This document shows, in pieces, positions 1 through 16,273 of a stretch of DNA of 64,000 bases. The stretch's first letter is position 1. Each line of letters opens with the position of its first letter. The stretch spans positions 288,001 through 352,000 of the forward strand of contig CAWFAK010000007.1 in NCBI GenBank assembly GCA_963813715.1, in the 5' to 3' direction. The notes below the pieces were generated by a model. It saw nothing but the letters and a program-made list of their open reading frames with translations. It had not been told where the DNA came from and searched no databases. A program made the translations under genes and the position numbers. The stretch comes from an uncultured Planctomycetaceae bacterium. GTDB lineage: Bacteria; Planctomycetota; Planctomycetia; Planctomycetales; Planctomycetaceae.

Positions 1-629
1 AATTCGGTGTCCGTCAGCGGCCCGGCCTTCAACAGCACGCTGTCTGGAATGCCTACCTTGCCGATGTCGTGCAGCGGGCTGGTGAGGTAGATCAGGTTGA
101 CGTATTCCGCGTCGATTTCGTCGCGGTATTTCGGCTTGCGGCTCAAGCGGTCGGCCAGAATGCGGCAATACTCGCGCATCCGCTCGAGGTGCGCGCCCGT
201 CTCGGGACTCCGCGACTCGGCCAGCTTGGCGAGCGTGAAGATCGTCAGGTTGCGGCTCTCCAACGAGAGCAAGCGCACGCCCGACTTCACCCGCACGCGC
301 AGCTCGGCCGGATGAAACGGCTTGGAGATGAAATCGTCGGCCCCGGCGTCGAGCCCCTGCACGACGTTGTCGGTGCCGTCCCGCGAGGTGACCAGAATGA
401 TGTACACGTAACTAGCGAAGCTGCGCTCGCGAATGCGGCGGCACAGCTCGAGGCCGTTCATCTCCGGCATTTCCCAGTCGGAGATGACGATGCGATACAG
501 CCCCGTCCGCAGGATTTCGAGCGCCTCGCGCCCGTTGTGCGCGGCCGTGACCTCGTAGCCGGCGCCCGACAGCGCCTCGCCCAACAGCTCGAGTGCGATT
601 TCATCGTCATCCACAATCAAGATGCGCAT
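1..629 (-). CDS. Response regulator with REC + HD-GYP domain (RpfG-like cyclic di-GMP phosphodiesterase), runs off the window start
   Basis: Not in the ORF track; translated by hand from ATG at 629: MRILIVDDDEIA...ISDWEMPEMNG...DDFISKPF (REC), then LAESRSPETGAHLERM...SPLHDIGKVGIPDSVLLKAGPLT (HD-GYP N-terminal half). Start overlaps the kinase stop. Confidence 0.9.
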   Translation of the reverse strand, partial: MRILIVDDDEIALELLGEALSGAGYEVTAAHNGREALEILRTGLYRIVISDWEMPEMNGLELCRRIRERSFASYVYIILVTSRDGTDNVVQGLDAGADDFISKPFHPAELRVRVKSGVRLLSLESRNLTIFTLAKLAESRSPETGAHLERMREYCRILADRLSRKPKYRDEIDAEYVNLIYLTSPLHDIGKVGIPDSVLLKAGPLTDTE

Positions 630-3600
630 GGAACTTCTCCGGAGAGCACAGTTTCAGCCAGCACGGCGTCGGTCCGTTCGGGCGACGTCGCGGGGACCAA
701 CGGCAAGGTTTCCTGCAGGAACCGCCGACTTTCGTATTTGAGTTTTGCCAGAGTGTCGCGGGCCGCGCCGATGTTGCCGCTCTTGGCCAACATTTCCAGA
801 TCGCCCGACACGGCGCGAAGCGGCTCGGCCGACAGATTCGCGGCCGCCCCCTTCAACCGGTGGGCACAGCGTCCCAAAAGATCGCAGTCGCCGGCGTCCG
901 CGGCCGTTTTGATCTCGTACAAATCGGCACCCAGCCGCGCGTGGAGCTTGACCAGCAGCTTGTCGGCCAGCTCGGCCTTGCCCAGGCAGCGCCTCAGGAG
1001 CGACGGCCGATCGATGACGATGGCCAGATCTTCGGCCGGATCCTGCTCGGCTTCGACCGCGGAGACAACCGCCGCCGGCTCGGGCATCTGGGCCACCTCG
1101 AACGGTTCCGGGGCCGCGCCTTCGGTCGCCGACAGCTGCACTTCGATCGTCTCGACGAGCTTGAAGGGATCGAAGGGCTTGCAGATGTAATCGTTCATGC
1201 CGGCGTTCAGGCACCGCTCGCGTTCGCCGGTCAGCGCGTTGGCGGTGAGGGCGACGATCGGCAGCACCGGCCCCGTGGCGCCCGCCGCCCGCTCGGCCTC
1301 GCGAATGTGCTGCGTCGCTTCCAGGCCGCCCATCTCGGGCATCTGGCAGTCCATCAGCACGAGGTGGTATTTCGTCTTCTGCACGGCTTCGACCGCCTGC
1401 CGGCCGTCGCCGACAACATCGCAGCGGTAGCCGGCCTGCGTGAGGATCTCGACGGCCACCTGCTGATTGATGTCGTTGTCCTCGGCCAGCAAAATGCGAA
1501 CTCCCTTTCGCGACGTGCGCGGAATGACGAAGGCTTCCGTCGTGTCCTTGCGCCCCAAGCGGGGACGGGCCTTTTCGGTGCCGTCATTGCTGACGACCGC
1601 CAACAGGGCCTCCATCAGCGCGGTCCGCATGATCGGCTTTGAGAGGCAATCCACAAAGCCCAAATTCCGCAAACGCAGCAAATCCTGCGGTGCCCCGACC
1701 GGCGTGAGTAGCATCAGGGCCGGCTTGCCCAGCTCGGGCAGCGAGCGAACGGTGGCGGCAAACTCCTCTTTGGTCAAATCGCTGACCCCGAGATCCCAAA
1801 GGGCAAAACTGTAGTGCGCTTGGGTGGTGGCCGCCTGTTCGAGCCGTTTGAGGGCTTCCGCTCCGCTCGTCACCTCGCTGACTTCCAGCCCCAGGTTGAC
1901 GAGCTGTTCGGCAACGATCGGCCGGCTGGTCTCGTTTTGATCGACGACCAGGGCCCGCAGACCCTGCAACGGCTTGAGCCGGTTCGCGTCGGCCTCTCCG
2001 GACAGCTCAGCCACCTCGAACGGCAGCGAGAACCAGAAGGTCGAGCCGCGGCCCACCTGGCTCTCGAAGCCGATGGCGCCCCCCATCAGTTCGCACAACT
2101 TCTTGCAGATCACCAGCCCCAGGCCCGACCCACCATATTTCCGCGTGATCGACGCGTCGACTTGAGAGAAGGCCTGAAACAGCCGGTTGAAGCGGCTTTC
2201 CGGAATGCCGATGCCGGTGTCTTCGACGGTAATGCGGAGCGTGGCGACGCGGTCGAGCTGTTCGACGACGGCGATGCGGACCACCACCTTGCCCCGCTCG
2301 GTGAACTTGATCGCGTTGTTCACCAGGTTGGTGATCACCTGCCGCACGCGGCCCGGGTCGCCGATCAGGCGCAATGGCACGCCCGGATCCGCAAAGTAGG
2401 CCATCTCGAGCGACTTTTCCTTGCACTTATGCGCCATCAGCTCGATCACCGGCTCAATGGTGGCGTGCAGGTCGAACGGGATCTTTTCGACCTCGAGCAT
2501 GCCCGCTTCGATCTTCGAGAAGTCGAGCACCTCGTTGAGCAAGTCGAGCAGCGACGTGCCCGAGAATTTGGTCGTCTGGGCGTACTTGCGCTGTTGCGAG
2601 TTGAGCGGCGTCGACATCAACAGGTCGGTCATGCCGATCACGCCGTTGAGCGGCGTGCGCAGCTCGTGCGAAATGTTCGCCAAAAATTCGCTCTTCGCGC
2701 GGTTGGCGGTTTCGGCCTCGACGCGGGCGGCGTGCAGCTGCTTGTTGTAGTCGGTGAGCTGCTTCTGCGTTTGCGACAGCTCGGCGACGAGCCGCTCCAA
2801 CTGCTTGGTCCGCTCGCGGACCCGCTCTTCCAAATTGAGGTTGAGGTCGCGGATGGTGCGGTTGTCGCGATCGAGCCGCTCGACCATCGAGTTGAACTGG
2901 CGGGCCAGGATGTCGATTTCGTCGTTGCCCGTCGGCGTGAGCCGCTCGGAAAGCAGTCCACTACCGACCCGGTCCATGGCGGCGACCATCACGTCGACCC
3001 GCTTGGTCACCGAACCGGCCATCAACGTCGCGTAGAGCACGCCTGTAATGGCCGCGGCGGCCGTGATGTACAAGGAGTGGGCTCGCAGCTCGCGGACGGC
3101 CTCCACCTGGTTGTTCTTGTCGGGGTCGTTGATGATGTCGGTGGCCCGCTGCCGCGCGACCTGGCCGATCATCAGCGCCGTGGTCGTAATGATCAAAAAC
3201 GAGCACAATCCCAGGCGGAACCGCAGCTTGCCCCGCGGCACGGCGCGATATTCAATCGACACTCCGTGCGCCAACAGGTGGCGAATCACGGTGCTCATGC
3301 AGTGTTCGACGGCAAAGAACGTGGCCAACAAGGCCAGGTTGATGCCCATGAACACGGCCCAGGTCAGGTTGATGAGCATGTCAACCGGAGCGCCGTGCCA
3401 GCGCAAATAGAGCGACACGGGCAACAGGCACGTCAGCGGCGTGAACCAGGCCTCGATGCGGTGATGCCGCGCCGAAAACAGGACCGCGTCACGGCCGGCC
3501 TGCTGGGCGTAGACCGGGTCGAACGGTTCGCCCCACTGGATACATTTGAGCACGTGCCGAACGCGCCTGAGCTCCCACAGAGCGATCAGCACGGTCGCCG

Positions 3601-3823
3601 TCACGCACTGCAGCACGACGGTGATGGCCGAGACGCGGAAGTGGTAGCGTAGCGCCGGGTCGAGCCGCAACGTCAGCTCGACGTAATAGATGACGAGCAA
3701 GCCGCCGATCGAGCCGCCCAAACGCGTCACGATCATCATCAGCAGGATGTACTGATGACCGAAACGGTTGAGGTATTTCTCGGTCAGCGATTGCTTCACG
3801 GCTGTGGCCTGTTTACCGGCCAA
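617..3823 (-). CDS. Hybrid sensor histidine kinase (multi-TM sensor, HAMP, HisKA, HATPase, 2x REC, Hpt)
   Basis: Several hydrophobic helices; HAMP (DEIDILARQFNSM); H-box FLANISHELRTPLNG; N/G boxes NLVNNAIKFT, DTGIGI, GGSGLGL; REC LLAEDN..LMDCQMP..KP; Hpt AHRLKGAA. Confidence 0.95.
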   Translation of the reverse strand: MAGKQATAVKQSLTEKYLNRFGHQYILLMMIVTRLGGSIGGLLVIYYVELTLRLDPALRYHFRVSAITVVLQCVTATVLIALWELRRVRHVLKCIQWGEPFDPVYAQQAGRDAVLFSARHHRIEAWFTPLTCLLPVSLYLRWHGAPVDMLINLTWAVFMGINLALLATFFAVEHCMSTVIRHLLAHGVSIEYRAVPRGKLRFRLGLCSFLIITTTALMIGQVARQRATDIINDPDKNNQVEAVRELRAHSLYITAAAAITGVLYATLMAGSVTKRVDVMVAAMDRVGSGLLSERLTPTGNDEIDILARQFNSMVERLDRDNRTIRDLNLNLEERVRERTKQLERLVAELSQTQKQLTDYNKQLHAARVEAETANRAKSEFLANISHELRTPLNGVIGMTDLLMSTPLNSQQRKYAQTTKFSGTSLLDLLNEVLDFSKIEAGMLEVEKIPFDLHATIEPVIELMAHKCKEKSLEMAYFADPGVPLRLIGDPGRVRQVITNLVNNAIKFTERGKVVVRIAVVEQLDRVATLRITVEDTGIGIPESRFNRLFQAFSQVDASITRKYGGSGLGLVICKKLCELMGGAIGFESQVGRGSTFWFSLPFEVAELSGEADANRLKPLQGLRALVVDQNETSRPIVAEQLVNLGLEVSEVTSGAEALKRLEQAATTQAHYSFALWDLGVSDLTKEEFAATVRSLPELGKPALMLLTPVGAPQDLLRLRNLGFVDCLSKPIMRTALMEALLAVVSNDGTEKARPRLGRKDTTEAFVIPRTSRKGVRILLAEDNDINQQVAVEILTQAGYRCDVVGDGRQAVEAVQKTKYHLVLMDCQMPEMGGLEATQHIREAERAAGATGPVLPIVALTANALTGERERCLNAGMNDYICKPFDPFKLVETIEVQLSATEGAAPEPFEVAQMPEPAAVVSAVEAEQDPAEDLAIVIDRPSLLRRCLGKAELADKLLVKLHARLGADLYEIKTAADAGDCDLLGRCAHRLKGAAANLSAEPLRAVSGDLEMLAKSGNIGAARDTLAKLKYESRRFLQETLPLVPATSPERTDAVLAETVLSGEVPCAS

Positions 3824-3854
3824 GCGGAGGGGGCCGCTCGTCGGGATGAATTCC

Positions 3855-4910
3855 CTATTTCTTCCCCCGGCTGCCCAAGTGCAGGCAGATCAGCCGCTGG
3901 AGTCCCCCGACGAGATCGGTCAAATTCACCGAGCGGCAGCGGGTCGCCAGCGCCAGGATCTCCCGGCGATAGGCCTGCCAGCGCTCGAGGAAGTGTTCCT
4001 CGTGCTTGCGTTCCCGGATCACGCCTTCGATGTATTCGCGGTTGCCGCTCCACAAGTCGCTGACCTTGAGGTCGCCGCAGGCAATCGCGCGGGCGAAGAC
4101 GCCGCTGGTGAAGTCGTCCTCGCCGATCTCGCGCTGCCAGGTGGTGATCATGTTGCCGATGCGGCCCATGCACTGCCCGCGCCACACCGCCTCACGAACC
4201 ACGCCCATTTCCGCGCGGTCGAACCGGGGCGAGCACATCATGTCCATGGTCGAAGAGACCATCATGTGCATGTTGTGCGGCAGGTAGAGGTCGTGCTCGA
4301 CCAGGTTGAACATCTCGGGATATTCATCCATCAGCCGCGAATAGCGCATCACGTTGAACAGCTGCCGATAGTCGAACTGCAACAGCTCGGCGAACTCGGC
4401 GTGGCGGGGAAAGTCCTTCACGCGGCGCTGGATCTCGTTCCAGATATCGAGCGTGAACCGCGCGTAGGCCCGCTGGTGCGGCAACAGCGATTTCTTCAGC
4501 TCCTGTCCGCCCGTCTCGAGCAAGTCGAGCAGGTGTTCCAGAAAGGCGAGATCCTTCTGATTGTCGGCGACGTCGTCGAGCATGACGTCGAGCATCACGC
4601 CCAACACCTTGGTGTCGGCCACCTCGTTCTCGAGGGACGGCTCGCAGCAGGTCAGCCGCGTGATCTCCACGCCGCGCCGTGCCCAGGTCCACAGGAACGG
4701 ATCGCGACGGCCAACTTGCGCGTAGCCCTCGACCCAGCCCGCGAGCGGGCGGCTCAATTTGATCGCGAGGACGTGCGCGATTTCTTGTTCGATTAATTCG
4801 GCATTGGGGAAGAAGTCGGGCATGACCACCGGTTCACTGGCCGCTCGAACCGCGTCCGAGCCGGCCGGGGCCAGAAGTTGTTCCACTAGAAGTTGAGGGT
4901 TCACGGTCAC
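3855..4910 (-). CDS. Class I isoprenoid synthase (terpene synthase/prenyltransferase) fold protein
   Basis: Asp-rich motif MLDDVADN (DDxxD) and NSE-like motif GNMITTWQRE (NxxxTxxRE) about 140 aa downstream; helical-looking, about 350 aa. The start may be GTG 4904, which has better AGGA spacing. Confidence 0.6.
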   Translation of the reverse strand: MTVNPQLLVEQLLAPAGSDAVRAASEPVVMPDFFPNAELIEQEIAHVLAIKLSRPLAGWVEGYAQVGRRDPFLWTWARRGVEITRLTCCEPSLENEVADTKVLGVMLDVMLDDVADNQKDLAFLEHLLDLLETGGQELKKSLLPHQRAYARFTLDIWNEIQRRVKDFPRHAEFAELLQFDYRQLFNVMRYSRLMDEYPEMFNLVEHDLYLPHNMHMMVSSTMDMMCSPRFDRAEMGVVREAVWRGQCMGRIGNMITTWQREIGEDDFTSGVFARAIACGDLKVSDLWSGNREYIEGVIRERKHEEHFLERWQAYRREILALATRCRSVNLTDLVGGLQRLICLHLGSRGKK

Positions 4911-5175
4911 GTTCCTGGTCTACGGGAGGTGCTGAGGGGAAAGTTCACCGCGGACCAAAGTCCGCCCGTTCTAACGTGCGCTCCGCGCCGTTCTCGATAT
5001 TCCTTTTCGTTCGCGATTTTCTGCGCTCTCGATATTCCTTCCTGTCGATTCCGTTCGCTCCGGCTCCTGTGCCGACTACTTTGTTGCCGACTTCTTCGCT
5101 CGTCGTCTTTACGCTTCCGCCGCGGTTCGCACCGCGCGTAGATCACTAGGGCCTCCGGGGTTAATGAGGCACGAA

Positions 5176-5203
5176 AGCCTACTCCACGACTGAACTCTGT
5201 CAA
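5176..5203 (-). promoter_or_regulatory. Putative sigma70 promoter for the synthase-kinase-RR operon
   Basis: Minus strand TTGACA-N16-TAGGCT, about 270 nt upstream of the synthase start. Confidence 0.5.
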
Positions 5204-5257
5204 CCGGCGCGTCCGTCAGTTTTTTCAGAATCTCTTTCGATCGACTTCGTTAAGTTT

Positions 5258-5285
5258 TTGACTTTCTGGAAAATTGGACTAAAGT
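5258..5285 (+). promoter_or_regulatory. Putative sigma70 promoter for ribB-like gene
   Basis: TTGACT-N16-TAAAGT in an AT-rich patch, back-to-back with the minus-strand promoter. Confidence 0.4.
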
Positions 5286-5588
5286 GTGAGCATCGCATCT
5301 TCAGGCAGGTTCCAGTCGGGACATCAGATCCCGTTTTCTCGCCATCTCTTGCCGTTTGCGGTTGGCTCTTCCGGTCAGCGGATCGTCGACTTTTCGCGGT
5401 GTGCGTCTTTTCGCGGTGTGATTGAGACGATCGCCAAACTCAACGCGATCGTGCCGCGTTCCACTTCGCGATGAAGCGGCACCCGCCCGCATTGGACGAG
5501 TTCCGCAAGCCGACCTCGTTGATCCCACAACCTCATTGATCCACATCAGAGAATCCGCAAGCCCCGAATTTTCGAGGACGATTCCCCC

Positions 5589-6392
5589 ATGCCCCTCTTC
5601 TCCAAGCTGGACGACGCGCTGGAAGCCCTGACGCAGGGCCGCATGATCATCGTTGCCGACTCCGAAGACCGTGAGAACGAAGCCGACTTTCTCGTTGCGG
5701 CGGAACGGATCACATCGGAGAACGTGCACTTCATGATTTCGCACGGACGCGGACAGCTCTGCATGCCCGTCGTGTCGCAAATCGCCCGGCGCCTCAGCCT
5801 CAAGCCGATGGTTCCGCGAAAGAGTGCGTCGATGCCCTGCTTCGCCGTGCCGGTTGACCACTCGCTGTGCAAAACGGGAATCAGCCCAAAAGAACGGGCG
5901 TTCACAATCCGGAAGATCGTCGAAGATTCGACGCGGCCCGACGACTTTCTGCGGCCCGGACACATCTTTCCTCTGATCGCCCGCGACGGCGGAGTGCTCG
6001 AACGACCGGGTCACACCGAGGCCACCATCGACCTGATGCGACTGGCCGGGCTTCCGGCCGCGGGAGTGCTCTGCGAGATCTGCAGCCGCGACGGGGAACA
6101 CATGGCGACCGGCCGCGAACTCCTGGACATCGCCAAGAACTTCGGCCTGCCGATCATCACCATCGACAACGTGATCGATCGCATGCAGGCAAAGGTCCGC
6201 GCAGCGCTCGTCGAACGGCGCCGGCCGGCACCCCAACCATCGCCTGGTGGCACAGCTCACGAGCACCAATGGCGCGAGCGTCAATGGCCCAGGCGTCAAT
6301 GGTACCGGGGCCGGGCGGGTTCCCGCCTGCGCTCCGCCTGGGCCGCACAGACGCAACGGCAAACATCAGCCGACTCCCCCGTCACCGCTTGA
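5589..6392 (+). CDS. ribB: 3,4-dihydroxy-2-butanone-4-phosphate synthase (stand-alone)
   Basis: DRENEADF, GQLCMP, TGIS, RPGHIFPL, GVLERPGHTEA and LCEI motifs. The low-complexity tail may be frameshifted. Confidence 0.9.
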   Translation: MPLFSKLDDALEALTQGRMIIVADSEDRENEADFLVAAERITSENVHFMISHGRGQLCMPVVSQIARRLSLKPMVPRKSASMPCFAVPVDHSLCKTGISPKERAFTIRKIVEDSTRPDDFLRPGHIFPLIARDGGVLERPGHTEATIDLMRLAGLPAAGVLCEICSRDGEHMATGRELLDIAKNFGLPIITIDNVIDRMQAKVRAALVERRRPAPQPSPGGTAHEHQWRERQWPRRQWYRGRAGSRLRSAWAAQTQRQTSADSPVTA

Positions 6393-7038
6393 CGGAACTT
6401 CCCGGGACTGAAGAATTCGGCGCGAGCCACTTCCCGTTCGCCGTATCGAAGAGCAACAACTCGCTCGTGCCGTGCGCTTCCGGGCCGTGCTTCGCGCCGC
6501 CGAGGATCGAAATGGCGATATGGCCGTTATCGACGCCAACCAGCACGCGGTACGGCTCGAGCGTCACGCTTCCCACCTCGCGATCGTCGGCATCCCACAC
6601 GCGGACGATGTAGCGCAGCTCGCACTCTTTGCCTGCGAGCGTCGCGAAGCCGTCGACGGGGACGAACAGCGACACAATTCGACGCGTGTCGACCGTAGTC
6701 GGGCCGACGTCGACGTAGTCCCGCAGTCCGCCGTACTTCTTCGACGTGTACCAGGCGGCCAGCGGATGCTTGGGCATCTGCACGGGCTGCCAGTTCCCCT
6801 TTTCGCGATATTCGGGATGCGCGGAGATGGTGAAGCCTTTGTTGCCCGCGCGTTGTTGCGCGAGCACGGTAATCACGTCGCCCTTCTCGGAGATGGCCGC
6901 TTGCTGCGCATCGATCCGCCGTGTACGGACGAGCGATTCGGTGGCGAGGCTGCCTGTTCCGACAAGTGATTGAGCGGAGGCGGACGACGACAGCGCGGCG
7001 AGCAGCGCGCACGAGAGGAACGTGGCGGGGATTCTCAT
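6382..7038 (-). CDS. Hypothetical secreted protein
   Basis: ATG 7038 gives a signal-peptide-like start MRIPATFLSCALLAALSSSASAQ; typical codon usage. Confidence 0.65.
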   Translation of the reverse strand: MRIPATFLSCALLAALSSSASAQSLVGTGSLATESLVRTRRIDAQQAAISEKGDVITVLAQQRAGNKGFTISAHPEYREKGNWQPVQMPKHPLAAWYTSKKYGGLRDYVDVGPTTVDTRRIVSLFVPVDGFATLAGKECELRYIVRVWDADDREVGSVTLEPYRVLVGVDNGHIAISILGGAKHGPEAHGTSELLLFDTANGKWLAPNSSVPGSSVKR

Positions 7039-7275: not shown

Positions 7276-9245
7276 TTAGCAGCGCGCCGCGGCTCGCTTT
7301 TTGACCAGCTGGAAGTGAACAACCGTTACAGCGGTAAAAGCGAACAGCACCCCGTAATAGATGTTGAAGGCGCGCTCGTTCGAATCGGTCAGCGGACCTG
7401 TGATCGCCTGCGCGATCGCATTCTGCACGAGCAGCACGAGCCACATCGCGGCAGCCGCGTGCGGGAAGATGTTGCCCCGAAAATTCCGCGGCAACGGCCA
7501 GACCAGCACCCAAACGGCGATGCCGAACACCATCAGCAAGTAGTCCGGGGCGAGCGCGTGCTGCAGCCGCCGATCCCAGACCCGCTCATCGTAGCCGTAA
7601 GTGTTGAACCAGCCCTTGATCCCGTACTGCAGCGACAGCCCCAGCCCCGCCAGCAGGCCGAGGGCCAGCCCCAGTCGCTCGAGATTCGGGTCACCCTCGG
7701 CAGGCGTCCCGGAATTCTTTCTCGGCCGCGAATTTTCGCAGAGCCAAGCAATACCAGCCCATGCCCGACGAGGATCACGGCCGCCAGGTAGAGCCGCATC
7801 ACGGTGAGGCCCAGCTCGAACGAGCGGGTGCGGACGCGAGCATGGTCCGGGCCGAGGAATTGGGTGAGGTTCACCAGGAACTTGTCCAGGCGGTTGAATA
7901 CCCGGTCAATTTGGAGCGTACGACCCCACTCGGCGTACTGCTCGACCGGAACGAACAGGCCAACGACCAACGCGGCGGTCAGGATCAGACCGACCCATTC
8001 GACGCTCGTCGACGGGCCCTTCGGATTCGCACTGCTTTCCGCAGAATCGATCGGCCGCTTGCGGTAGGCGAAGTAATACGCCGCGGCAAAGACACTGACG
8101 ACGGCAAAGAAGAACGACGACCACTCCAGATATTTCCAGTGAGCGAAGTGATCCGCCAACGTCTGGGGAAACCGAATCAACCAGGGCACCTCCAGCCGAA
8201 ACACGGTGCTCAAGAGCCAGGTCAGTCCCAGAAAAATCAGCAGCCACTCGAAGTTCGGCCCGGCGACCGAGCGTCGCGAGGCAACGATCGCCCGCTCGCG
8301 CTCGGACATCGGCCGATTGACCAGGAAATAGGCCATCCCAAAGGCAAAGCCCATGCTCAGGCCGCCCGACGACTCCCAACACCTCCAAAAGTTGAATTGC
8401 ACGCCCGGAAAGACGGTCGGAGCCCACTTCCAAGTCTGAAACAGCGCCCAGCCGATGCCGTTGACGATTGAGGCGGTCAGAATCAGGCCGACGTTCTTCC
8501 AGTCTCGCCGCCAGACCTCGAACGCCAGAAAGCCAAGAATCAGGCCCAGGTGATGCACGGCTTCGGTGCAGTCGATGATCATGCGGCGGAGGTTGGGATT
8601 GGCTTTCAGATCCTCGTACTGCGCTTGAATCGAGTCATAAAGCGGCAAGAAGCACTGCGGGTAATGCTCGATCAGGAACTGCGCGAGGTACGCGCCGGTC
8701 AGCCCGCAGGCAATCCGCAGGAACCAGTGCCAGACCCGCGTCTCCTTCAGCGAGCCGGTCCAAGCCAAAAAGCAGGCGCCGATGCCCGCCCACTTTGCTC
8801 CGGCGAGGAACATCCACAGAAAGCCGTACGCCCGGGAGATCGGCACAAACCGATCGACGCCGAGCGTCGCGTTGGTCATCAGTTTGCCTTCGAATAGGCT
8901 CGGCCACTGCATCCAACCTTGGATGCCGGCAATGCCGATCCCGAAGGTCAGCGCGGCCACGATCCAGCCCGAGGCGTAACGCCGCGACTGTTCCCTCCGC
9001 GGATCGTGGGCCAAATACCACCACGCCGCTCCCCAGGTGACGCCGGCAAAAACGCAGCCCTTCCAGGCACCAAACCCGGAGCAGCCGCGAACGGCCCAGG
9101 TCATTCCTCCGAGCGCCACGAAGAGCAGCGTCGGCAAGACCAGGTCGTGCAACAGGTCAGAATGCGGAGTGAAGGTCGACGGCGGGTCGGCCATTGCGGC
9201 CGCAGGGCCCTTGCCGGAAGCGGGGCCCGGTGTGGTATTCATCAA
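7276..9245 (-). CDS. Uncharacterised polytopic membrane protein (apparent frameshifts near 7700-7760)
   Basis: Many Gly/Trp-rich TM segments; ORFs 7533..9245 and 7276..7539 join through a hydrophobic alternative frame. Confidence 0.7.
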
Positions 9246-9383
9246 GCGGACTTTCTGGCGGTCGGCCGAGCGAAGACTTTTCGCAAAATGCTCGGACCAA
9301 AGGCCAGTTTAATGCCGCGACAAACCCGGTCCAATCAAGCCTCGACCCAGATTCGTGCGACGACCGACCTTAATTGACAGACT

Positions 9384-9455
9384 GGGTGCATGCCCACGGC
9401 CCGGCGTGGGCATGCATGCAGGACATGCCCACCCAAAGCTGTGGGCATGGCACCC
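9384..9455. repeat. Inverted pair of GGGTG-headed REP-like palindromes
   Basis: GGGTGCATGCCCAC..GTGGGCATG and CATGCCCAC..GTGGGCATGGCACCC in an intergenic region. Confidence 0.65.
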
Positions 9456-9590
9456 ATCATTCCAGCCCGGTCCATCCACCAGCGGACCCTGACGAGCCGA
9501 CCCCGAGCCTCGACCAGCCGGCCCGTGTCAGAGCGGTTGACCGCGACGGTGCTCGGTCCCCGTCAGCATTTTCTCGAGCGGAACCAGCGC

Positions 9591-10392
9591 ATGACCCAAG
9601 GCAGCGACTACTCCAGCGACACTTTTGCCACGTTCTACGATCATCTCGACGTCTACGTGAATCGCGCCGACGTCGACTTCTTCGTCTCGGAGTCGGTCGC
9701 CGCGCGCGGGCCCGTGCTGGAACTCGGTTGCGGGACCGGACGCGTGCTGCTCCCCTGCGCGGGCCGGCGCCACCATTTGGGGTTTGGACGCTTCAGAATC
9801 GATGCTGGATCGCTGCCGGGGCAAGCTGGCATCCGAGAATGAGGACGTGCGGAATCGAGTGGTGCTCAAGCGCGGCGACATGCGGGACTTCCGCTACGAC
9901 GTCCCGTTCCAACTCGTGACGATTCCGTTCCGCCCCTTCCAACATCTGAACACCGTGGCCGAGCAGCTCGCCTGCCTGGCGTCGATTCACCGCGCCCTGG
10001 CCGAGGGAGGCCGACTGATCCTCGACGTCTTCAATCCGTCCCTTACGGCGCTCGTCGACCAAACGCGGTTGCAGGAGCAATCGAGCGGCGCGCCCTTCAC
10101 CCTGCCCGATGGACGCGTCGTCGAGCGGACCGAGCGGGTCACCGGCCGCGACTACGCGAAGCAAATCGTGTTCGTCGACCTGATCTTTTCCGTGACGCAT
10201 CCCGGCGGCCAGCGCGAGCGGCTCGTGCAGGCGATCCAGATGCGCTACCTGTTCCGATACGAACTCGAGCACCTGTTGGCCCGCAGCGGATTCGAGATCG
10301 TGGCCGCCTATTGCGATTACAAGCGCACGCCTCTCGACGCAGGTCCGGCCCAAGAGCTGGTGTTCGTCGCGCGAAAACCGAGCCGCGGATGA
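9591..10392 (+). CDS. Class I SAM-dependent methyltransferase (apparent frameshift near 9760)
   Basis: VLELGCGTGR motif I, then GLDAS..ML and GDMRDF in the next frame. Confidence 0.85.
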
Positions 10393-11450
10393 CGCTCCGT
10401 GCCGGCGTTCAGGCGAGCAGTCGCGATATCGGATCTCCAGCGAAGATCGACGGCCAATCGTCCCGCGGCGACGTGGGCGCGCAGGGCCCGCGGCCGATCG
10501 TACCGGTCGGAGTCGAGGTCCGCGCGCGTCATGCCGCCGGCACGGAAGGCGTCGTACATTTGCTCGATTCCGTCGGCGACGGTCCAGCGCGGCCGAAAGC
10601 CGGGCACCTCCTGCGCGAGGCGGCTGCAGTCGACGCAATAAGAGCGCCGATCGGCGCCGTTGCCCGGTTCATACTCCAGGCGACTGGGCACCAACTGATG
10701 GATGAGGTCGGCCAACTCGCCGAGGCGGTAATTGTCTTCGGTCCCGCCGACGTTGAAAATTCGGTTGTGGACCAATTGTCGAGGGGCGGCCAGAACGGCT
10801 TCGAATGCGCGGCAAATGTCCTCGACGTGGACAAAGGGCCGCCACGCCAAGCCGTCTCCGCGAAGGATGACGCGTCCGGTTGTCGCCACAGTCGCCACCA
10901 ATTCGTTGAGCGCCAAATCCAACCGCATTCCCGGCGAAACGCCATAAGCCGTCGCGTTGCGGAGGACGGTGGGGCTGAAACTGTCGCTGGCCAGCAAAGC
11001 CAGATTCCGCTCGGCAAGCGCCTTCGACTCGGCATACGAGGTGAGCGGAGTGACAGGCGCATCTTCATCGAGCAGTGCTGATCCCGCGTTGCCGTAGAGG
11101 CTGCACGAGGACGCAAACAGGAAACGCGGCACTCCCGCCTGCTTCGACAGCTCGGCGAGCCGCACCGTGGCCCGCGTGTTGATATCGAGCATCAACTCGC
11201 GGCCCACGCGGCCCAGCGGATCGTTCGACAAGGCGGCCAGGTGGATGACGGCGTCGAGTCCAGCCAGGTCGGCGCGAGTCACGTCGCGGAGGTCGTCGGC
11301 CACGCACGGCACGATCAGTTCCTCATCGTCGAGCGCCGAGTTGCGATAGAGGCCGCTATCGAGGCCGAAAACTTGATGCCGCTGCGCCAAAAGCCGCGGC
11401 ACCAGCAGGCTGCCGATGTAGCCATAACAGCCGGTGACCAGGATCCGCAT
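10317..11450 (-). CDS. NAD-dependent epimerase/dehydratase (extended SDR)
   Basis: ILVTGCYGYIG, IHLAALSND, ASSCSLYG, YAESK. The true 3' end may lie near 10410. Confidence 0.9.
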   Translation of the reverse strand: MRILVTGCYGYIGSLLVPRLLAQRHQVFGLDSGLYRNSALDDEELIVPCVADDLRDVTRADLAGLDAVIHLAALSNDPLGRVGRELMLDINTRATVRLAELSKQAGVPRFLFASSCSLYGNAGSALLDEDAPVTPLTSYAESKALAERNLALLASDSFSPTVLRNATAYGVSPGMRLDLALNELVATVATTGRVILRGDGLAWRPFVHVEDICRAFEAVLAAPRQLVHNRIFNVGGTEDNYRLGELADLIHQLVPSRLEYEPGNGADRRSYCVDCSRLAQEVPGFRPRWTVADGIEQMYDAFRAGGMTRADLDSDRYDRPRALRAHVAAGRLAVDLRWRSDIATARLNAGTERHPRLGFRATNTSSWAGPASRGVRL

Positions 11451-11678
11451 CTCTTAAGGACCTCGCTCGTTGTGTGTCGCGTGTTGGTTTACCGCTCGCA
11501 GGGGGTTCCTTTCACGGTAAGGTGGACGCTGAGCCGCGGAGAAGACGAATTCGGAGGAGGAAGGATCGGCCCGTCGAATGAGCCCGGCCCCGCTACCGAA
11601 CGTTCCGATTGTGCGTGCCCTGAGGAGATGTCGCCGTCGCGCGACAATCGAGACAATTGAGAGCTGATCGGTCCGCGC

Positions 11679-12146
11679 TCAGTCGTCGGCCGGACGGCGG
11701 CGCAACTGCTTGGCGGCCGAACGCTGGCGCTTGTCGGTTAAGCGGCGGCGGCGGGAGCCGGCGGTCGGCCGAGTCGCTTTGCGACGTTTGGGCTGCGCCA
11801 CGGCCCGAGCCAGCATCTCCCGCAGTTTGTCGTAGCAATCCTGAATGTTCTTCGGCTGATCGCGGAAGCGTTGGCTGGTGAGCAGGAAGTCCCCTGCGTC
11901 CGTCATACGGTGCCGATTCTGCTCGACAAAGCGCACACGAACGCGCTCGTCGATGCTGGGCGACTCGAGCACGCGCCAGCGCATCACGGCCTTGCTGTTG
12001 ACCTTATTGACGTTCTGTCCGCCGGGCCCGCCGCTGCGGGCGAAAGTGAAGGAGAATTCGGCAAGCGGAATGCGCACCGCCGGCGGCACGAACAGCACTC
12101 GTTCGTCGTCACCAGCATCCCGCGAATCATCGGAACTCGAGAGCAT
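11679..12146 (-). CDS. arfB: Alternative ribosome rescue peptidyl-tRNA hydrolase ArfB
   Basis: RSGGPGGQNVNKVNSK (GGQ motif) and basic C-terminal tail KRRKATRPT..RRRL..K. Confidence 0.92.
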   Translation of the reverse strand: MLSSSDDSRDAGDDERVLFVPPAVRIPLAEFSFTFARSGGPGGQNVNKVNSKAVMRWRVLESPSIDERVRVRFVEQNRHRMTDAGDFLLTSQRFRDQPKNIQDCYDKLREMLARAVAQPKRRKATRPTAGSRRRRLTDKRQRSAAKQLRRRPADD

Positions 12147-12271
12147 TCAGGGTTTCCCGTCGCGCGAACGTCGACCACTTTATTAGATCACTCTATTAAA
12201 CGGCAGATGCCTCAATTATAGAGGAGCCTGGGTGGCGCTCGATCCTCGACCCATTCAGGAAGGTCCACGAC

Positions 12272-12760
12272 ATGTTTGACCGCGAACTGCGCTTGTACGC
12301 TTTGATGAACGGACTCCTGCAAAAACTGCTCGCCGACGTCGACGAGACGCGGTTCCAGCATCCGTTGTGCGAGGGGGGTAACTCGCCCGCGTGGATCGTC
12401 TCGCATCTGGCCATCGTCAACGATTATTGCCTCAAAAATCTCGGCGACCAGCGGATCGCCCCTGCCGAGTGGCACAAGCGGTTCCGCCCGGGCGCGATGC
12501 CCAAGGACGACACGGCCCCCCGGCCCACCAAGGCCGAACTGTTCGAGGTGCTCGAAAAGGGCCGTCGCCGCATCTTCGAGACGGCCGCCAACGTCGATCC
12601 GGAAAAGATGGATCAGCCGCAAACCTCCGATTTCTTCAAGGATTCGCCGGTGAAGACCATTGGCGACGTGGTCGCCCACCTGCTCACCACGCACTTTGCT
12701 TTTCACGTCGGTCAAATCTCGGCCTGGCGGCGGCTCGAAGGCAAGTCGCACCTCATCTAA
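12272..12760 (+). CDS. DinB/YfiT family protein
   Basis: NSPAWIVSHL and HFAFHVGQI His triad; 162 aa. Confidence 0.85.
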   Translation: MFDRELRLYALMNGLLQKLLADVDETRFQHPLCEGGNSPAWIVSHLAIVNDYCLKNLGDQRIAPAEWHKRFRPGAMPKDDTAPRPTKAELFEVLEKGRRRIFETAANVDPEKMDQPQTSDFFKDSPVKTIGDVVAHLLTTHFAFHVGQISAWRRLEGKSHLI

Positions 12761-12897
12761 AGTCCGACGGACAGCCAGGGACCGATCTTTCCTGCATTCG
12801 CCGATTTGCTAAACTCCGCGCCCAGCGGACGCGGAGGTTGCGGGTGAGGTTCGCGCGCCCCGCGGAATTGCGGCAAACCACAAGGACGTGCGGCGCC

Positions 12898-13648
12898 ATG
12901 TACTGTTCCGAGTGCGGCAAACCGGCCACGCGGGAAGTTCTGTTCCAATTGCGGCACCCCCCTGATGTCTGCCGCAACGGCGGTTTCTGTGGCGGCGCCC
13001 GTCGCCGCGGCAGCGACGGTGCCTACAGTCCCGCCGGCTCCGCACCTGCCGATCTCGGCAGCGATGGCTGTGACGCCGGTCGTCGACGTCCCAGTCGCCA
13101 GCGCCCCGACGGTCAATCCGCCCGTCGTTAACTGGGACCAGGAGTGGCGCTACGAGGAATTGATGAAGGTGCCCGAGGTGCGGCGGATCATCGAACGGCA
13201 CGCCTCGATGGCCCGCACGGCAATCAGCGCCGAGCAATTCTCCAAGTTCGCCGACAAGGTCCTGCAGAATCCGATCCCCTCGGATAAGTTCGCCGCCTTT
13301 GCCCAGCCAATCTTCGGCAGTTTTGGGATCCGCACGGGGAAGGATCGCACCACCGTCGTCGACGCGCCGATCGGTCGCGTGATGTTGCGCGTGCTCTGCT
13401 CGCTGGCCCGCCACGGCCAGTCGTTACGGGGCGTCCAGCAAGGACCGGACGGCTGCAGCTTTACGGCCGTGCTGCCTTCGGACCCAATGTCCCTCGAGGG
13501 CGAGGTGTCCGTCATCGTTCGTCGCCGCGAAACGCGCTCGAGCAAGCTGACGGCCGCCATGAAGATCACCGGCCAGCTCTACGATTGGGGCAAGTGCCGC
13601 CGGGCCCTCGACGCGTTCTTCGCGGACATGCAAGTCGACCCCGCCTGA
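12898..13648 (+). CDS. Zinc-ribbon domain protein (apparent frameshift near 12930)
   Basis: ATG 12898 gives MYCSECGKP; the next frame gives GKFCSNCGTP, then a Pro/Ala linker and a globular domain. Confidence 0.7.
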
Positions 13649-13808
13649 TCAGGGTCAGTCGTCGCTCGTCCGCGCCGTCACCTGTCGACGCCCGCATGTC
13701 GGCCGCCGGAATGGAACGGTCCGCCTCCAAAGCGTAAGCTCGGTGTGCCCGTGCAACGAAGTTGCTCCGTGGCTGCCCCCCGAACGCGCTTCCGAGAGGA
13801 CCACTCCC

Positions 13809-15405
13809 ATGTCGCAACGAATCAATCGCCGGACTGCGCTCGTCCGCTGCGCGCAGCTGGCCTCCGCCGGCGCTGCCGGGAGTTTGCTGCCGCACACAGT
13901 CACCGGCACCCAAACGTCCGCGTCGATGTCCGTGACAGTGTTACTCAACGAGCCGACCGGCTGGATCAAGCCGGCGCTCTACGGCCAGTTCACCGAGCAC
14001 ATCGGCGGCGTGGTTTACGACGGCATCTGGGTCGGGCCGAATTCGAAGGTGCCGAACATCGACGGCATTCGCCGCGCGCTGGTCGAACACGTCCGGCGGT
14101 TGGGGAAAATCGTGATCCGCTGGCCGGGCGGCTGCTTCGCCGACGCCTACGATTGGCGCGACGGCATCGGACCGCGCGAAAAGCGGCCACGCCGTTTCGG
14201 CCGCTGGGAAGAAGTCACCGAGTCGAACCAGTTCGGCACGCACGAGTTCATCAAATTCTGTCGGCTGTGCGGCGCGGAGCCGTATCTGGCCGGCAACGTC
14301 GGCACAGGGACGCCCGAGCAATTTCAGCGGTGGGTTGAATACTGCAATGCTCCGGCGGGCGCAACGTCGCTGGCCGACGAGCGGGTGGCCAACGGCGACC
14401 GCGATCCGTTCCGCGTCCACTATTGGGGTGTCGGCAACGAGAGCTGGGGCTGCGGCGGCAAGTTCACGCCCGAGGATTATTGCACGCAGTACCGCCGTTT
14501 CACGGAGTGGCTGCCCGGCTACGGCGTGCCACTCTACCTCATCGCGTCGGGACCAAACGGCAACGACCTCGACTGGACGCGGCGGTTCTTCAAAAAGTGG
14601 AGCGACTACGCCCGCGCGCCGCTCTCCGGCTGGGCCGCACACTACTACTGCGGCACGACCGGCCACGCGCTCAAGTTCACGCTCGACCAGTGGTACGAAA
14701 TGCTGGAGAAGGCCAACCGCATGGAGCGGCTGATCGTCGATCAGTGGGCCGCCATGGGCGAATTCGATCGGGCCCACAAGGTCAAACTGCTGATCGACGA
14801 ATGGGGCTGCTGGCATCCGAAGGGCACGGAGCTCAACCCGCACCACCTATTCGAACAGAAGTCGTGCCTCCGCGATGCGCTGTGTGCCGCCCTCACGCTC
14901 GACACGTTCAATCGCCATGCCGAGAAGATCGATATGGCGAACGTGGCGCAGCTCGTGAACAACATCCACACGCTATTCCACGCCGACGGCGACAAATTCG
15001 TCGCCACGCCCAACTTTTACGTCTTCGAGATGTACCGCCCGCACCAGGACACGCGCGGCGTGCGGATGGACGTGCAGGCTCCGGCGGTCAAGTTTCACGC
15101 CGGACATGAGCAGCAGATCTTCCGCGTGGCGGGATCGGCGTCGCGGGCGGACCGCAAGTTGACCGTCACGCTCGTCCACACGCACGCGAGCGAACCGGCC
15201 GAGGTTTCGTTCTCAATCCGCGGCGGCTCGGCCGATCACGTCGAACAGACGGTGCTCACACACAGAGACGCTCAGCGCGCACAACACATTCGAGAGTCCG
15301 CACGAAGTGGTGCCGCAAACGTCGAGCACGCCGCACCGCGGGGCGACGTTCACGTGCGTCCTGCCGCCGGCGTCGGTGAATCGATTGGACGTTGCGATTG
15401 CCTGA
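13809..15405 (+). CDS. GH51 alpha-L-arabinofuranosidase, Tat-exported (apparent frameshift near 15265)
   Basis: INRRTAL twin-Arg; YGQFTEH, RWPGGCFAD, WGVGNE, DEWG, MANVAQLVN; C-terminus AHNTFESP..LPPASV in the shifted frame. Confidence 0.92.
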
Positions 15406-15450
15406 TGACGCCCGAAGAGCGGATCCGCTTCGACCCAGCAGAGACGAGCC

Positions 15451-16122
15451 GTGACCAGCCTGACCGTCGAGAATTACCTCAAGGCGATCCTGCAGATCTC
15501 ACTCGAGAGCGGCAGCACATCGGTCTCGACGGGTGAAGTTGCCGCCGCGCTCGGCGTACTGCCGGGAACTGTCACCAGCATGCTCAAGACGCTGGACGAG
15601 GGGAAGCTCGCCAAGTACACGCCCTACGAGGGGGTCGTTCTCACCGCCGCGGGTCGAAAGGCAGCAATGCGGATTCTGCGCCGGCATCGCCTCATCGAGT
15701 CGTTCCTGGTGAAAACGCTCGATCTCCCGTGGGACGAGGTCCACGGTGAAGCGGAAAATATGGAGCACGCGGTCAGCGACCAGCTCATCGATCGGATTGA
15801 CGAGTTCCTCGGACGCCCACAGTACGATCCGCACGGCGATCCGATTCCGACGGCCGAGTGCAAGCTCCCGGCCCAACGCCAGACGGCCACCCCACTCACC
15901 GAGTGTGCGGCGGCAGCGCGGATCAAGATCGGGCGCGTGATCAACCAGGCACCGGAGTTCCTCCGCTTTCTCTCGGCGTCCGGCATTGCGGTTGGAAGCG
16001 TCGCCACGGTTGTGTCGAACACGCCCGAGGCTGGAATCGTGCGTCTCGATCTCGGGCGACGCACGGTCGACCTCGGTTATTCAGCCGCAGGACAGTTGCT
16101 GGTCGAGCCCATCAAGCGCTGA
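15451..16122 (+). CDS. DtxR/MntR family metal-dependent regulator with FeoA domain
   Basis: TVENYLKAI, HTH GTVTSMLK, RRHRLIESFL, EAENMEH, DPHGDPIP. Confidence 0.93.
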   Translation: MTSLTVENYLKAILQISLESGSTSVSTGEVAAALGVLPGTVTSMLKTLDEGKLAKYTPYEGVVLTAAGRKAAMRILRRHRLIESFLVKTLDLPWDEVHGEAENMEHAVSDQLIDRIDEFLGRPQYDPHGDPIPTAECKLPAQRQTATPLTECAAAARIKIGRVINQAPEFLRFLSASGIAVGSVATVVSNTPEAGIVRLDLGRRTVDLGYSAAGQLLVEPIKR

Positions 16123-16198
16123 TCTGCGTCAGGCGGTCAGCTTCCAGCACGCCCGTTCTCCGATTCTCGGTTGGACTTGACAATTCGAGCGCCAGAGA

Positions 16199-16214
16199 TT
16201 TTGATTAGTCAAAA
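16199..16214. promoter_or_regulatory. Candidate MntR/DtxR operator
   Basis: Near-perfect palindrome TTTTGATTAGTCAAAA located 16 nt after a TTGACA (16177-16182), in an AT-rich intergenic region. Confidence 0.5.
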
Positions 16215-16273
16215 ATTGTGATTTGATTAACTGCATTTGTTACATTTGACAATATGAAAAATGAGAGGTGGGC

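Follow-up and report, generated by a model that had tools for sequence, protein, structure and literature searches.

A terpene-synthase-fold enzyme linked to a membrane sensor kinase and an HD-GYP regulator in Planctomycetota: a candidate isoprenoid-based signaling cassette

Introduction

The known diffusible signals of bacteria are acyl-homoserine lactones, fatty acids, hydroxyketones, peptides, quinolones, and furanosyl compounds. In the CqsA/CqsS and LqsA/LqsS systems the synthase gene lies beside the gene for a multi-transmembrane sensor kinase whose hydrophobic signal is detected within the membrane, and in the ComQ/ComX/ComP system of Bacillus the gene for an isoprenoid-fold enzyme lies upstream of that for a multi-transmembrane histidine kinase. 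To our knowledge, bacteria have no known terpenoid signal that is paired with a receptor kinase of its own, and a search of the literature found none. Here we describe three genes at the left end of a 64,000-nucleotide stretch of DNA from an uncultured Planctomycetaceae bacterium (contig CAWFAK010000007.1, positions 288,001 to 352,000; hereafter the window). The genes, which are predicted to encode an enzyme with the fold of a terpene synthase (gene 1), a hybrid histidine kinase with several transmembrane helices (gene 2), and a REC-HD-GYP regulator (gene 3), form a cassette that suggests an undescribed, isoprenoid-based signaling system.

HD-GYP domains degrade cyclic di-GMP (c-di-GMP). The closest known system is the Rpf/diffusible signal factor (DSF) system, with a putative terpene synthase replacing the fatty-acid signal synthase. 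As set out in PMC4504480, RpfC has a five-transmembrane input followed by kinase, REC, and HPt domains and passes phosphate to RpfG, a REC-HD-GYP protein, which in turn degrades c-di-GMP; rpfF, which encodes the signal synthase, adjoins the rpfC and rpfG genes, and RpfF contacts the REC domain of RpfC. Like the Rpf genes, our locus clusters a synthase gene with the gene for a hybrid kinase that has several transmembrane helices, no large periplasmic domain, and REC and HPt domains, and with the gene for a REC-HD-GYP partner regulator. The two systems differ in that gene 1 has a predicted terpene synthase fold whereas RpfF has a crotonase fold, and in that dedicated isoprenoid-precursor genes (IspH, and RibB-like or DXS) here replace the fatty-acid enzyme RpfB. 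Gene 2 also has a HAMP domain, and its likeness to the input of RpfC is one of architecture only.

A preliminary description of the window, made from its sequence, had named CqsA/CqsS, LqsA/LqsS, and ComQ(X)/ComP as analogues. The likeness holds for the layout of synthase beside sensor, but the list missed the closest analogue, Rpf/DSF. CqsA and LqsA are pyridoxal phosphate-dependent acyl transferases, their output runs via LuxU/LuxO or LqsR rather than an HD-GYP protein, and no isoprenoid genes accompany them. ComQ prenylates a peptide encoded between the genes of its system, whereas the 31-bp gap between genes 1 and 2 leaves no room for a peptide gene; moreover, terpene synthases match the fold of gene 1 with higher scores than polyprenyl synthases do.

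Results

Three Genes in Tight Array

The core genes are listed below by position in the window, where window position equals position in L002, a stretch reaching to the left of the window, minus 12000.

3855..4910, minus strand: gene 1, a terpene-synthase-fold protein (predicted) of an unnamed Planctomycetota family (351 amino acids, GTG start)
617..3823, minus strand: gene 2, a hybrid histidine kinase (1068 amino acids, TTG start)
3014..3823, minus strand: membrane sensor input of gene 2 (residues 1-270, five to six hydrophobic segments)
1..629, minus strand: the part of gene 3, a REC-HD-GYP regulator, that lies in the window (open reading frame 3-629, cut by the window edge)
L002:11565-12629, minus strand: gene 3, complete (354 amino acids)

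Inspection of the open reading frames (ORFs) and their translations showed that the three genes are co-oriented on the minus strand, with a gap of 31 bp between genes 1 and 2 and an overlap of 13 bp between genes 2 and 3, much as the preliminary description had it in speaking of three co-oriented, tightly packed genes. The arrangement is not due to chance, because a homologue of the same sensor adjoins a homologue of gene 1 in 47 of 54 loci of other genomes (see below). The three genes form the core of a conserved Planctomycetota cassette.

Gene 1 Has the Predicted Fold and the Motifs of a Class I Terpene Synthase

Gene 1 matched no Pfam or NCBIfam family at E≤0.1. A word-indexed search returned 400 relatives at E≤0.001, and among the 120 of these that were listed every given name was "hypothetical protein" and the organism labels were Planctomycetes, Planctomycetaceae, or Pirellulales. 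An alignment of gene 1 and relatives (A1, 35 sequences) had a mean column identity of 59% and spanned orders. The DDxxD and NSE/DTE motifs bind Mg in class I terpene synthases. The preliminary description had claimed one of each for gene 1, and both were located, as follows.

4563..4577, minus strand: DDVAD, aspartate-rich metal-binding motif (residues 112-116, at the C-terminal end of helix 91-118)
4128..4154, minus strand: NMITTWQRE, NSE-type triad N253/T257/E261 (residues 253-261, at the end of helix 232-263)

All six motif residues (D112, D113, D116, N253, T257, and E261) are invariant in the 35 sequences of A1, as are many aromatic and polar residues, a C-terminal HLGSRGxK, and a polar motif, EHDxYxPHNMH, which falls at the break between helices 203-208 and 214-225 of the structure model described below. 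The motifs are also retained at greater distance: among the best 150 representatives of 50%-identity clusters, the three aspartates of DDxxD were found in 139, 141, and 140 of 143 aligned sequences and the N, T, and E of the second motif in 146, 147, and 147 of 149. The two motifs lie approximately 140 residues apart at the C-terminal ends of helices in the model, the positions at which class I synthases bear their metal-binding motifs. A conserved arginine 95 residues past the N/T/E triad falls at the position of the RY pair of known terpene synthases.

A profile built from A1 had no matches to PDB sequences at E≤10; that is, solved structures were not reached by sequence alone. We therefore turn to the AlphaFold2 model of gene 1 that was built on A1, which is all-helical (predicted local distance difference test score 88.6, predicted template-modeling score 0.86). 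Foldseek aligned this model to 29 PDB entries at E≤0.001 with a probability of 1.00, and the entries listed at that threshold were terpene synthases with the exception of Sat1646 (7e4n), whose title states no function. The best match was tolypothrichol synthase (9kgb, E 2.7e-5, template-modeling score 0.60). When the model was compared with 48,161 representative chains by VIA-align, the top match was the biformene synthase LrdC (6oh6_A; Z 21.6 and root-mean-square deviation [rmsd] 3.2 over 279 residues), followed by T-muurolol synthase (TmS, Z 21.5), selinadiene synthase (Z 21.4), and epi-isozizaene synthase (Z 21.3); DabA, an N-prenyltransferase with the terpene synthase fold, scored Z 20.2, and polyprenyl diphosphate synthases scored lower (Z 17-19). 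The earlier proposal of a terpene synthase fold is thus borne out by AlphaFold2, Foldseek, and VIA-align, all of which give the class I fold.

How gene 1 compares with characterized enzymes of that fold can be seen from LrdC (6oh6), selinadiene synthase (4okm), and epi-isozizaene synthase (3kb9), to which the alpha-helical model aligned with Z 21.3-21.6 and rmsd 3.0-3.3 over 269-279 residues, although its sequence identity to these chains is only 10-14%. Gene 1 shares with class I terpene synthases a DDxxD on one helix and an NxxxTxxRE triad some 140 residues further on. It differs from a typical terpene synthase in that its family is far more conserved and is embedded among signaling genes, and in having the EHDxYxPHNMH motif and the C-terminal HLGSRGxK. 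The match of gene 1 to the Pfam family PF19086 (Terpene_syn_C_2) was 11.8 bits (E 0.21), below the gathering cut-off of 23.7, and by this threshold gene 1 is not a member; weak matches to PF19086 were found for nine of the 35 members of A1 (best E 0.0036). A paralogue from another genome, G008, did pass (29.6 bits versus 23.7) and aligned to the A1 profile by hhalign with a probability of 99.9. Both Pfam and the model indicate that gene 1 is a stand-alone protein without a regulatory domain. By its predicted fold and both motifs, gene 1 represents a divergent, unnamed subfamily of the class I terpene synthases: a new subfamily within a known fold.

The Sensor Kinase and the REC-HD-GYP Regulator

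Pfam identified in gene 2 a HAMP domain (residues 267-318), HisKA (376-441), HATPase_c (488-603), two Response_reg domains (the better at 777-893), and Hpt (962-1029). Ahead of HAMP, hydropathy analysis revealed five clear hydrophobic segments and one weaker one, and the longest loops were 44, 31, and 28 amino acids, from which it follows that there is no large periplasmic domain. The complete gene 3 product contains Response_reg (E 2.1e-30, 105.6 bits) and HD_5 (E 4.5e-31, 108.3 bits versus a cut-off of 27.2) as well as HD, and its translation shows the HD and GYP signature residues; it is thus a REC-HD-GYP protein and a predicted c-di-GMP phosphodiesterase. Both findings agree with the preliminary description, which had read gene 2 as several transmembrane helices without a large periplasmic domain followed by HAMP-HisKA-HATPase-REC-REC-Hpt, and gene 3 as REC-HD-GYP.

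The sensor input is conserved across 33 orthologues and belongs to no Pfam family. We considered MASE10 as its identity and rejected it, as a protein-atlas score of 0.90 was within the range of chance and Pfam gave no confirmation. Gene 2 fell below the cut-offs of all 25 NCBIfam families listed, including the kinases named BarA, TorS, and LuxQ, the best being BarA at 511.8 bits versus a cut-off of 890. A complex prediction for the sensor input and the synthase returned a score of 0.00, which has no bearing on binding either way.

The Enzyme and the Sensor Are Inherited Together

The neighborhood check bore out the association with sensors on which the preliminary description depended. We assembled 54 loci from a scan of one genome per species (GTDB) and compared the window proteins with them by tblastn. 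All 54 are from Planctomycetota (Planctomycetaceae, Pirellulales, Phycisphaerae, and others). A homologue of the sensor (query, gene 2 residues 1-330) was present on either strand in 47 of the 54; of the 50 loci with 1,500 bp or more past the synthase gene, 37 have it on the same strand no more than 500 bp downstream and 43 no more than 4 kb downstream. A REC-HD-GYP homologue was found in 22 of the 36 loci with at least 7.5 kb downstream, 20 of the 22 being downstream on the same strand. In one locus (L024) the kinase and HD-GYP genes lie divergently upstream. The linkage spans several orders and persists where synthase identity is as low as 42%. Seven loci lack the sensor: L035 and L042, which are short contigs; L039, in which the 2.3 kb downstream is occupied by two other cassette genes; and L032, L043, L046, and L048.

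The identities of synthase and sensor co-vary (r = 0.97, 37 pairs), and because the sequences are related and the pairs not independent, this correlation shows joint inheritance rather than separate events. We conclude that gene 1 shares its inheritance with this membrane sensor as well as with HD-GYP regulators. Among 301 sampled Planctomycetota genomes, full-length matches to the sensor occurred only in the genome that holds the window (G000) and in one other (G285, in which the sensor starts 71 bp past the synthase gene), each time beside a homologue of gene 1; the other matches to the sensor profile that were listed cover the HAMP part only. Within these 301 genomes, then, this sensor input appears only as a partner of this enzyme.

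The relay is longer in Pirellulales-type loci. In L013 three plus-strand genes (9173-12358, 12406-15135, and 14906-16294) encode, in that order, a sensor kinase that has REC and another GHKL domain besides its first, a HisKA-HATPase-REC-REC-Hpt hybrid kinase as a protein of its own, and a REC-HD-GYP protein.

Isoprenoid Genes Surround the Core

Further features flank the three core genes on either side.

4911..5588, no strand: intergenic region from which gene 1 and the RibB-like gene diverge (678 bp; promoters presumed only)
5589..6392, plus strand: RibB-like (3,4-dihydroxy-2-butanone 4-phosphate [DHBP] synthase) gene, TIGR00506, divergent from gene 1 and a candidate member of the cassette
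L002:10537-11475, minus strand: IspH/LytB paralogue (312 amino acids), 525-1463 bases left of window position 1
L002:9173-10132, minus strand: FadL/TodX-type outer-membrane protein gene (Pfam), 1868-2827 bases left of window position 1

The IspH paralogue starts 90 bp beyond gene 3, outside the window, and is followed by the FadL/TodX-type gene (Pfam Toluene_X, E 1e-21). It passes the NCBIfam equivalog NF002188 (426 bits versus 420) and TIGR00216 (319.3 versus 187.85), and it is one of three LytB matches in G000. IspH homologues were found in 29 of the 54 loci and FadL-type genes in 25, these being raw counts in a set with many truncated contigs. No crotonase gene was present among the ORFs scanned to the left of the window. 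The RibB-like gene passes TIGR00506 (206.3 bits versus 177.45) and is a second copy, the other match in G000 being in a 404-amino-acid frame elsewhere. G+C drops to 0.58-0.59 in the divergent intergenic region, and an Rfam scan of 3700-6500 gave no match and hence no riboswitch, the flavin mononucleotide type included, ahead of the RibB-like gene. Scans of the cassette detected one promoter-like site versus 1.1 expected and 13 terminator-like sites versus 7.4 expected, the latter mostly within genes. Beyond the RibB-like gene, at 7533-9245 on the minus strand, a 570-amino-acid ORF with many long hydrophobic stretches probably encodes a polytopic membrane protein, as judged from the ORF list.

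The statement in the preliminary description that no tailoring or precursor genes are adjacent holds inside the window but not beyond it, where the IspH paralogue sits 90 bp past gene 3; and it fails for the relatives, in which geranylgeranyl-reductase-like genes, a cytochrome P450 (P450), and fused DXS paralogues were found near the synthase. In Phycisphaerae-type loci a gene for a flavin adenine dinucleotide (FAD)-dependent oxidoreductase lies between the synthase and sensor genes; its best match is geranylgeranyl reductase (TIGR02032), at 126.6 bits, below the cut-off of 158.8. An IspH gene also lies between synthase and sensor in four of the five such loci examined. In L016 the gene between the two is for a P450 that resembles terpene-oxidizing P450s, below cut-offs.

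DXS and IspH are of the methylerythritol phosphate (MEP) pathway, and upstream of the synthase, too, one of two partners recurs. Of the 44 loci that extend 2 kb or more upstream, 18 have a RibB-like gene as divergent neighbor and 11 have a DXS-like gene that is fused or lies directly upstream; the other 15 have neither, and no locus has both. In one relative (P0122) a RibB-like (DHBP synthase) domain is fused to the synthase domain. Genomes with a full fusion of DXS and synthase have a separate, stand-alone DXS as well in four of five checked, the fifth assembly being only 2.8 Mb. Thus, extra copies of MEP-pathway genes accompany gene 1, joined in relatives by tailoring enzymes of isoprenoid type, and the cassette as a whole has, by predicted gene function, a clear isoprenoid character. 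In its fuller form, as annotated here, it consists of a divergent RibB-like paralogue, the terpene-synthase-like enzyme, the multi-transmembrane hybrid kinase, the REC-HD-GYP regulator, the IspH paralogue, and the FadL-type channel.

The mutual exclusion of RibB-like and DXS-like genes fits the RibB-like copy as an alternative entry to the MEP pathway. In Escherichia coli, the G108S and D113G forms of RibB make enough DXP (1-deoxy-D-xylulose 5-phosphate) to replace DXS (PMC3424233), and by analogy the cassette copy may, in nature, take the place of DXS by providing a RibB-type route to DXP. We looked for the known DXP-forming substitutions in 15 cassette copies and did not find them: G108 is kept, and all 15 have Glu at the D113 position. 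(The second, non-cassette RibB match of G000 has Ser at E. coli position 113.) Because the known substitutions are not reproduced, it is the non-co-occurrence alone that speaks for a DXP route.

A Wider Family with Other Signaling Partners

A full HMMER search of 1.84 billion representatives returned 642 relatives at E≤0.001, many of them long proteins with the synthase domain at the C-terminus. We scanned for domains in 98 of 150 relatives listed, mostly longer than approximately 410 amino acids. DXS or transketolase-type domains were present in 45, most of which match the Transketolase_C model only and look degenerate; PilZ was present in eight (one with REC also), a cNMP-binding domain in four, and DHBP synthase in one, and nothing further was found in 40.

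The kinase partner likewise varies. At L046 (the stretch from G128, equal to stretch L067) a fusion of a DXS-like protein and the synthase is followed by a kinase gene (9016-14097, plus strand; 1693 amino acids, STK-AAA-TPR-GAF-HisKA-HATPase) and then by two more genes, one for a REC protein and one for a REC-HD-GYP protein; a FadL-type gene lies upstream. The divergent paralogues of G008 occur in three settings: with genes for a P450, a FAD oxidoreductase, and a glutathione S-transferase; as a methyltransferase fusion beside a giant kinase; and as a tandem pair. The kinase (L066:1058-6451, minus strand) has 1797 amino acids and the architecture STK-AAA-TPR-GAF-PAS-HisKA_3; no kinase was seen among the ORFs scanned around the paralogue in L065. 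The fusion, at L066:6792-8660 on the minus strand, is a 622-amino-acid protein with an N-terminal synthase-family domain and a C-terminal S-adenosylmethionine-dependent methyltransferase domain (Methyltransf_11/25/31, CMAS). Giant soluble kinases beside synthase-family genes in two unrelated genomes (L046 and L066) represent a second kind of kinase partner.

A scan of metagenomes seeded with the PilZ fusions yielded 42 loci, all from a more distant subfamily that matches the synthase part only and shares 36-45% identity with gene 1. In three of the four long loci scanned (L079, L088, and L095, but not L097), which look closely related and are counted as one observation, the synthase gene is divergent from a receptor/sensor operon, located by ORF scan in these soil contigs as follows.

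L079:1975-6752, minus strand: distant-subfamily operon
L088:3254-6649, minus strand: distant-subfamily operon
L095:1898-6759, minus strand: distant-subfamily operon

The operon encodes a TonB-dependent receptor, a YfiR/HmsC-like protein, and a CHASE8-HAMP protein, which in L079 and L095 extends into PAS and kinase ATPase domains. It resembles c-di-GMP control modules of the YfiBNR type. In sum, the enzyme family associates recurrently, and in several forms, with signal-transduction proteins, and the particular sensor of gene 2 is specific to one clade.

Occurrence in Soil

Near-identical cassette sequence was found in soil and rhizosphere runs from 18 studies. Contigs from three rhizosphere or soil RNA libraries covered 30, 27, and 24 of 30 bins of the cassette region (L002:9000-17500, that is, window 1-5500 plus 3 kb to the left) at 95% identity or greater, and some of these contigs bridge the junctions of genes 1 and 2, of genes 2 and 3, and of gene 3 and the IspH gene. 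They also cover the divergent intergenic region; DNA carry-over is possible, so the coverage is not proof of transcription or of an operon. Because DNA-type runs from many soil studies hold the cassette region too, the organism or close relatives of it are evidently widespread in soil.

Discussion

The established elements of the system described here are the fold and motifs of gene 1, its isoprenoid context, and its conserved linkage to the sensor. How might these parts work together? By analogy with the Rpf genes, they could constitute an Rpf/DSF-like circuit that employs a terpenoid instead of a fatty acid, a reading to which we would give somewhat less than an even chance. Gene 1 would ionize a prenyl diphosphate in a Mg-dependent manner to form a small, hydrophobic terpenoid, and the supply of prenyl diphosphate would be boosted by the local IspH together with the RibB-like or DXS paralogue. 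The terpenoid would partition into the membrane and be perceived there by the transmembrane input of the gene 2 kinase. The signal would then be relayed from His through Asp and Hpt to the REC domain in gene 3, switching on the HD-GYP domain for degradation of c-di-GMP. Finally, passage of the hydrophobic compound across the outer membrane through the FadL-type channel could allow the circuit to report cell density or confinement. We infer what the enzyme uses and makes, how its product is perceived, and any role in cell density.

Several considerations weigh against such a circuit. It is from gene order alone that we infer the link between the product and the kinase input. The enzyme family is rare, its profile matching five of the 301 sampled Planctomycetota genomes (two of the five being among the 190 of high quality), and its second motif is a variant form, in which the usual D at position two of the NSE motif is replaced by M or L. 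A polyprenyl synthase gene was absent from the ORFs scanned in 12 related loci and from those scanned over 12 kb to the left of the window (the region right of the RibB-like gene being unscanned), and hence we assign no substrate chain length to gene 1. Nor is the membrane sensor a universal partner: L046 has the soluble STK-AAA-TPR-GAF kinase in its place, L048 holds synthase, FAD oxidoreductase, and IspH genes without a kinase, and the cassette sensor is present in none of the 23 distant-subfamily metagenome loci with at least 1 kb downstream. Lastly, where the synthase stands behind PilZ (eight relatives), cNMP-binding (four), or REC-PilZ domains (one, among the eight), its predicted place is that of a signaling output, and these PilZ, cNMP-binding, and REC fusions mean that cause and effect could run the opposite way.

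That opposite course would have the kinase sense some other membrane or envelope cue, with the phosphorelay and c-di-GMP timing the making of an isoprenoid, such as a membrane-modifying lipid or a volatile, by a synthase that is merely co-expressed; it would be compatible with a feedback loop. Besides the fusions, which place the enzyme of relatives under the control of second messengers and phosphorylation, the variation of kinase type by clade favors this explanation: our cassette has the multi-transmembrane HAMP kinase, L046 and G008 have STK-AAA-GAF kinases, and the distant subfamily has a CHASE8 kinase module. We nonetheless judge it rather unlikely, as gene 1 itself is a stand-alone protein without a regulatory domain, as an HD-GYP output with no DNA-binding domain would need a further, unseen c-di-GMP receptor, and as the sensor's occurrence only beside the synthase (both of the two full-length matches in the 301 genomes) is expected of a cognate receptor but not of an envelope sensor. 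Alternatively, gene 1 could serve mainly as a binding partner instead of a signal synthase: it would bind a prenyl diphosphate, report flux through the MEP pathway, and modulate the kinase by protein contact. The precedent is the contact between RpfF and RpfC, documented in PMC4504480. The mean column identity of 59% across orders is unusually high for a terpene synthase, and most of the DXS-like fusions in 45 of 98 relatives look degenerate, which speaks for such a role; but the catalytic metal motifs are retained almost without exception, and the geranylgeranyl-reductase-like enzymes, the P450, and the methyltransferase fusion of relatives imply a product that is modified further, and we consider a mainly ligand-binding role improbable.

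A shade less probable still is that the locus is an ordinary specialized-metabolite terpene cluster, whose two-component genes are unrelated or are generic cluster-situated regulators. Extra DXS and IspH copies and P450s are typical of terpenoid clusters, and the sodorifen cluster reportedly pairs DXS with a terpene cyclase; our cassette resembles terpenoid clusters with MEP genes of their own in carrying extra copies of rate-limiting MEP enzymes beside a terpene synthase. The synthase genes without a kinase, in L048 and, among the ORFs scanned, in L065 of G008, would also be at home in such a cluster. Against this, the sensor is linked to the synthase in 47 of 54 loci, a linkage that spans several orders and synthase identities as low as 42%, the sensor domain was found nowhere else in the 301 sampled genomes, and the regulator is a predicted c-di-GMP phosphodiesterase rather than a transcription factor. 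We found in the literature no terpenoid cluster in which a cognate membrane sensor kinase and an HD-GYP protein are a conserved feature.

Full-text searches, from whose coverage subscription journals are largely missing, found nothing on the cassette or on the gene 1 family. Returning to the Rpf/DSF-like circuit, the system as proposed is new by its signal chemistry within the type defined by a synthase, a membrane kinase, and an HD-GYP protein. A bolder version would make it the first terpenoid-based system of bacterial cell-cell signaling or self-monitoring, with the following parts: a dedicated synthase fed by its own MEP entry and exit enzymes, the entry perhaps being a natural RibB-type route to DXP; a signal that would cross the outer membrane via the FadL-type channel; and a cognate kinase that would lead to degradation of c-di-GMP. 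The wider family, with its links to PilZ, cNMP-binding, REC, and kinase domains, would then comprise unrecognized signaling enzymes that join nucleotide and isoprenoid messengers. That all of this should hold at once is doubtful, though we do not dismiss it.

A RibB-type route to DXP, as a counterpart of the laboratory RibB mutants, would interest metabolic engineers. If the product of gene 1 is the ligand of the kinase, a chemical class would be added to bacterial signaling, Planctomycetota would have their first defined pair of signal and receptor, and the repeated fusion and linkage of an unannotated synthase family to c-di-GMP, cNMP, and phosphorelay modules would be explained. With the candidate synthase, receptor, and output enzyme encoded side by side, the question is directly testable.

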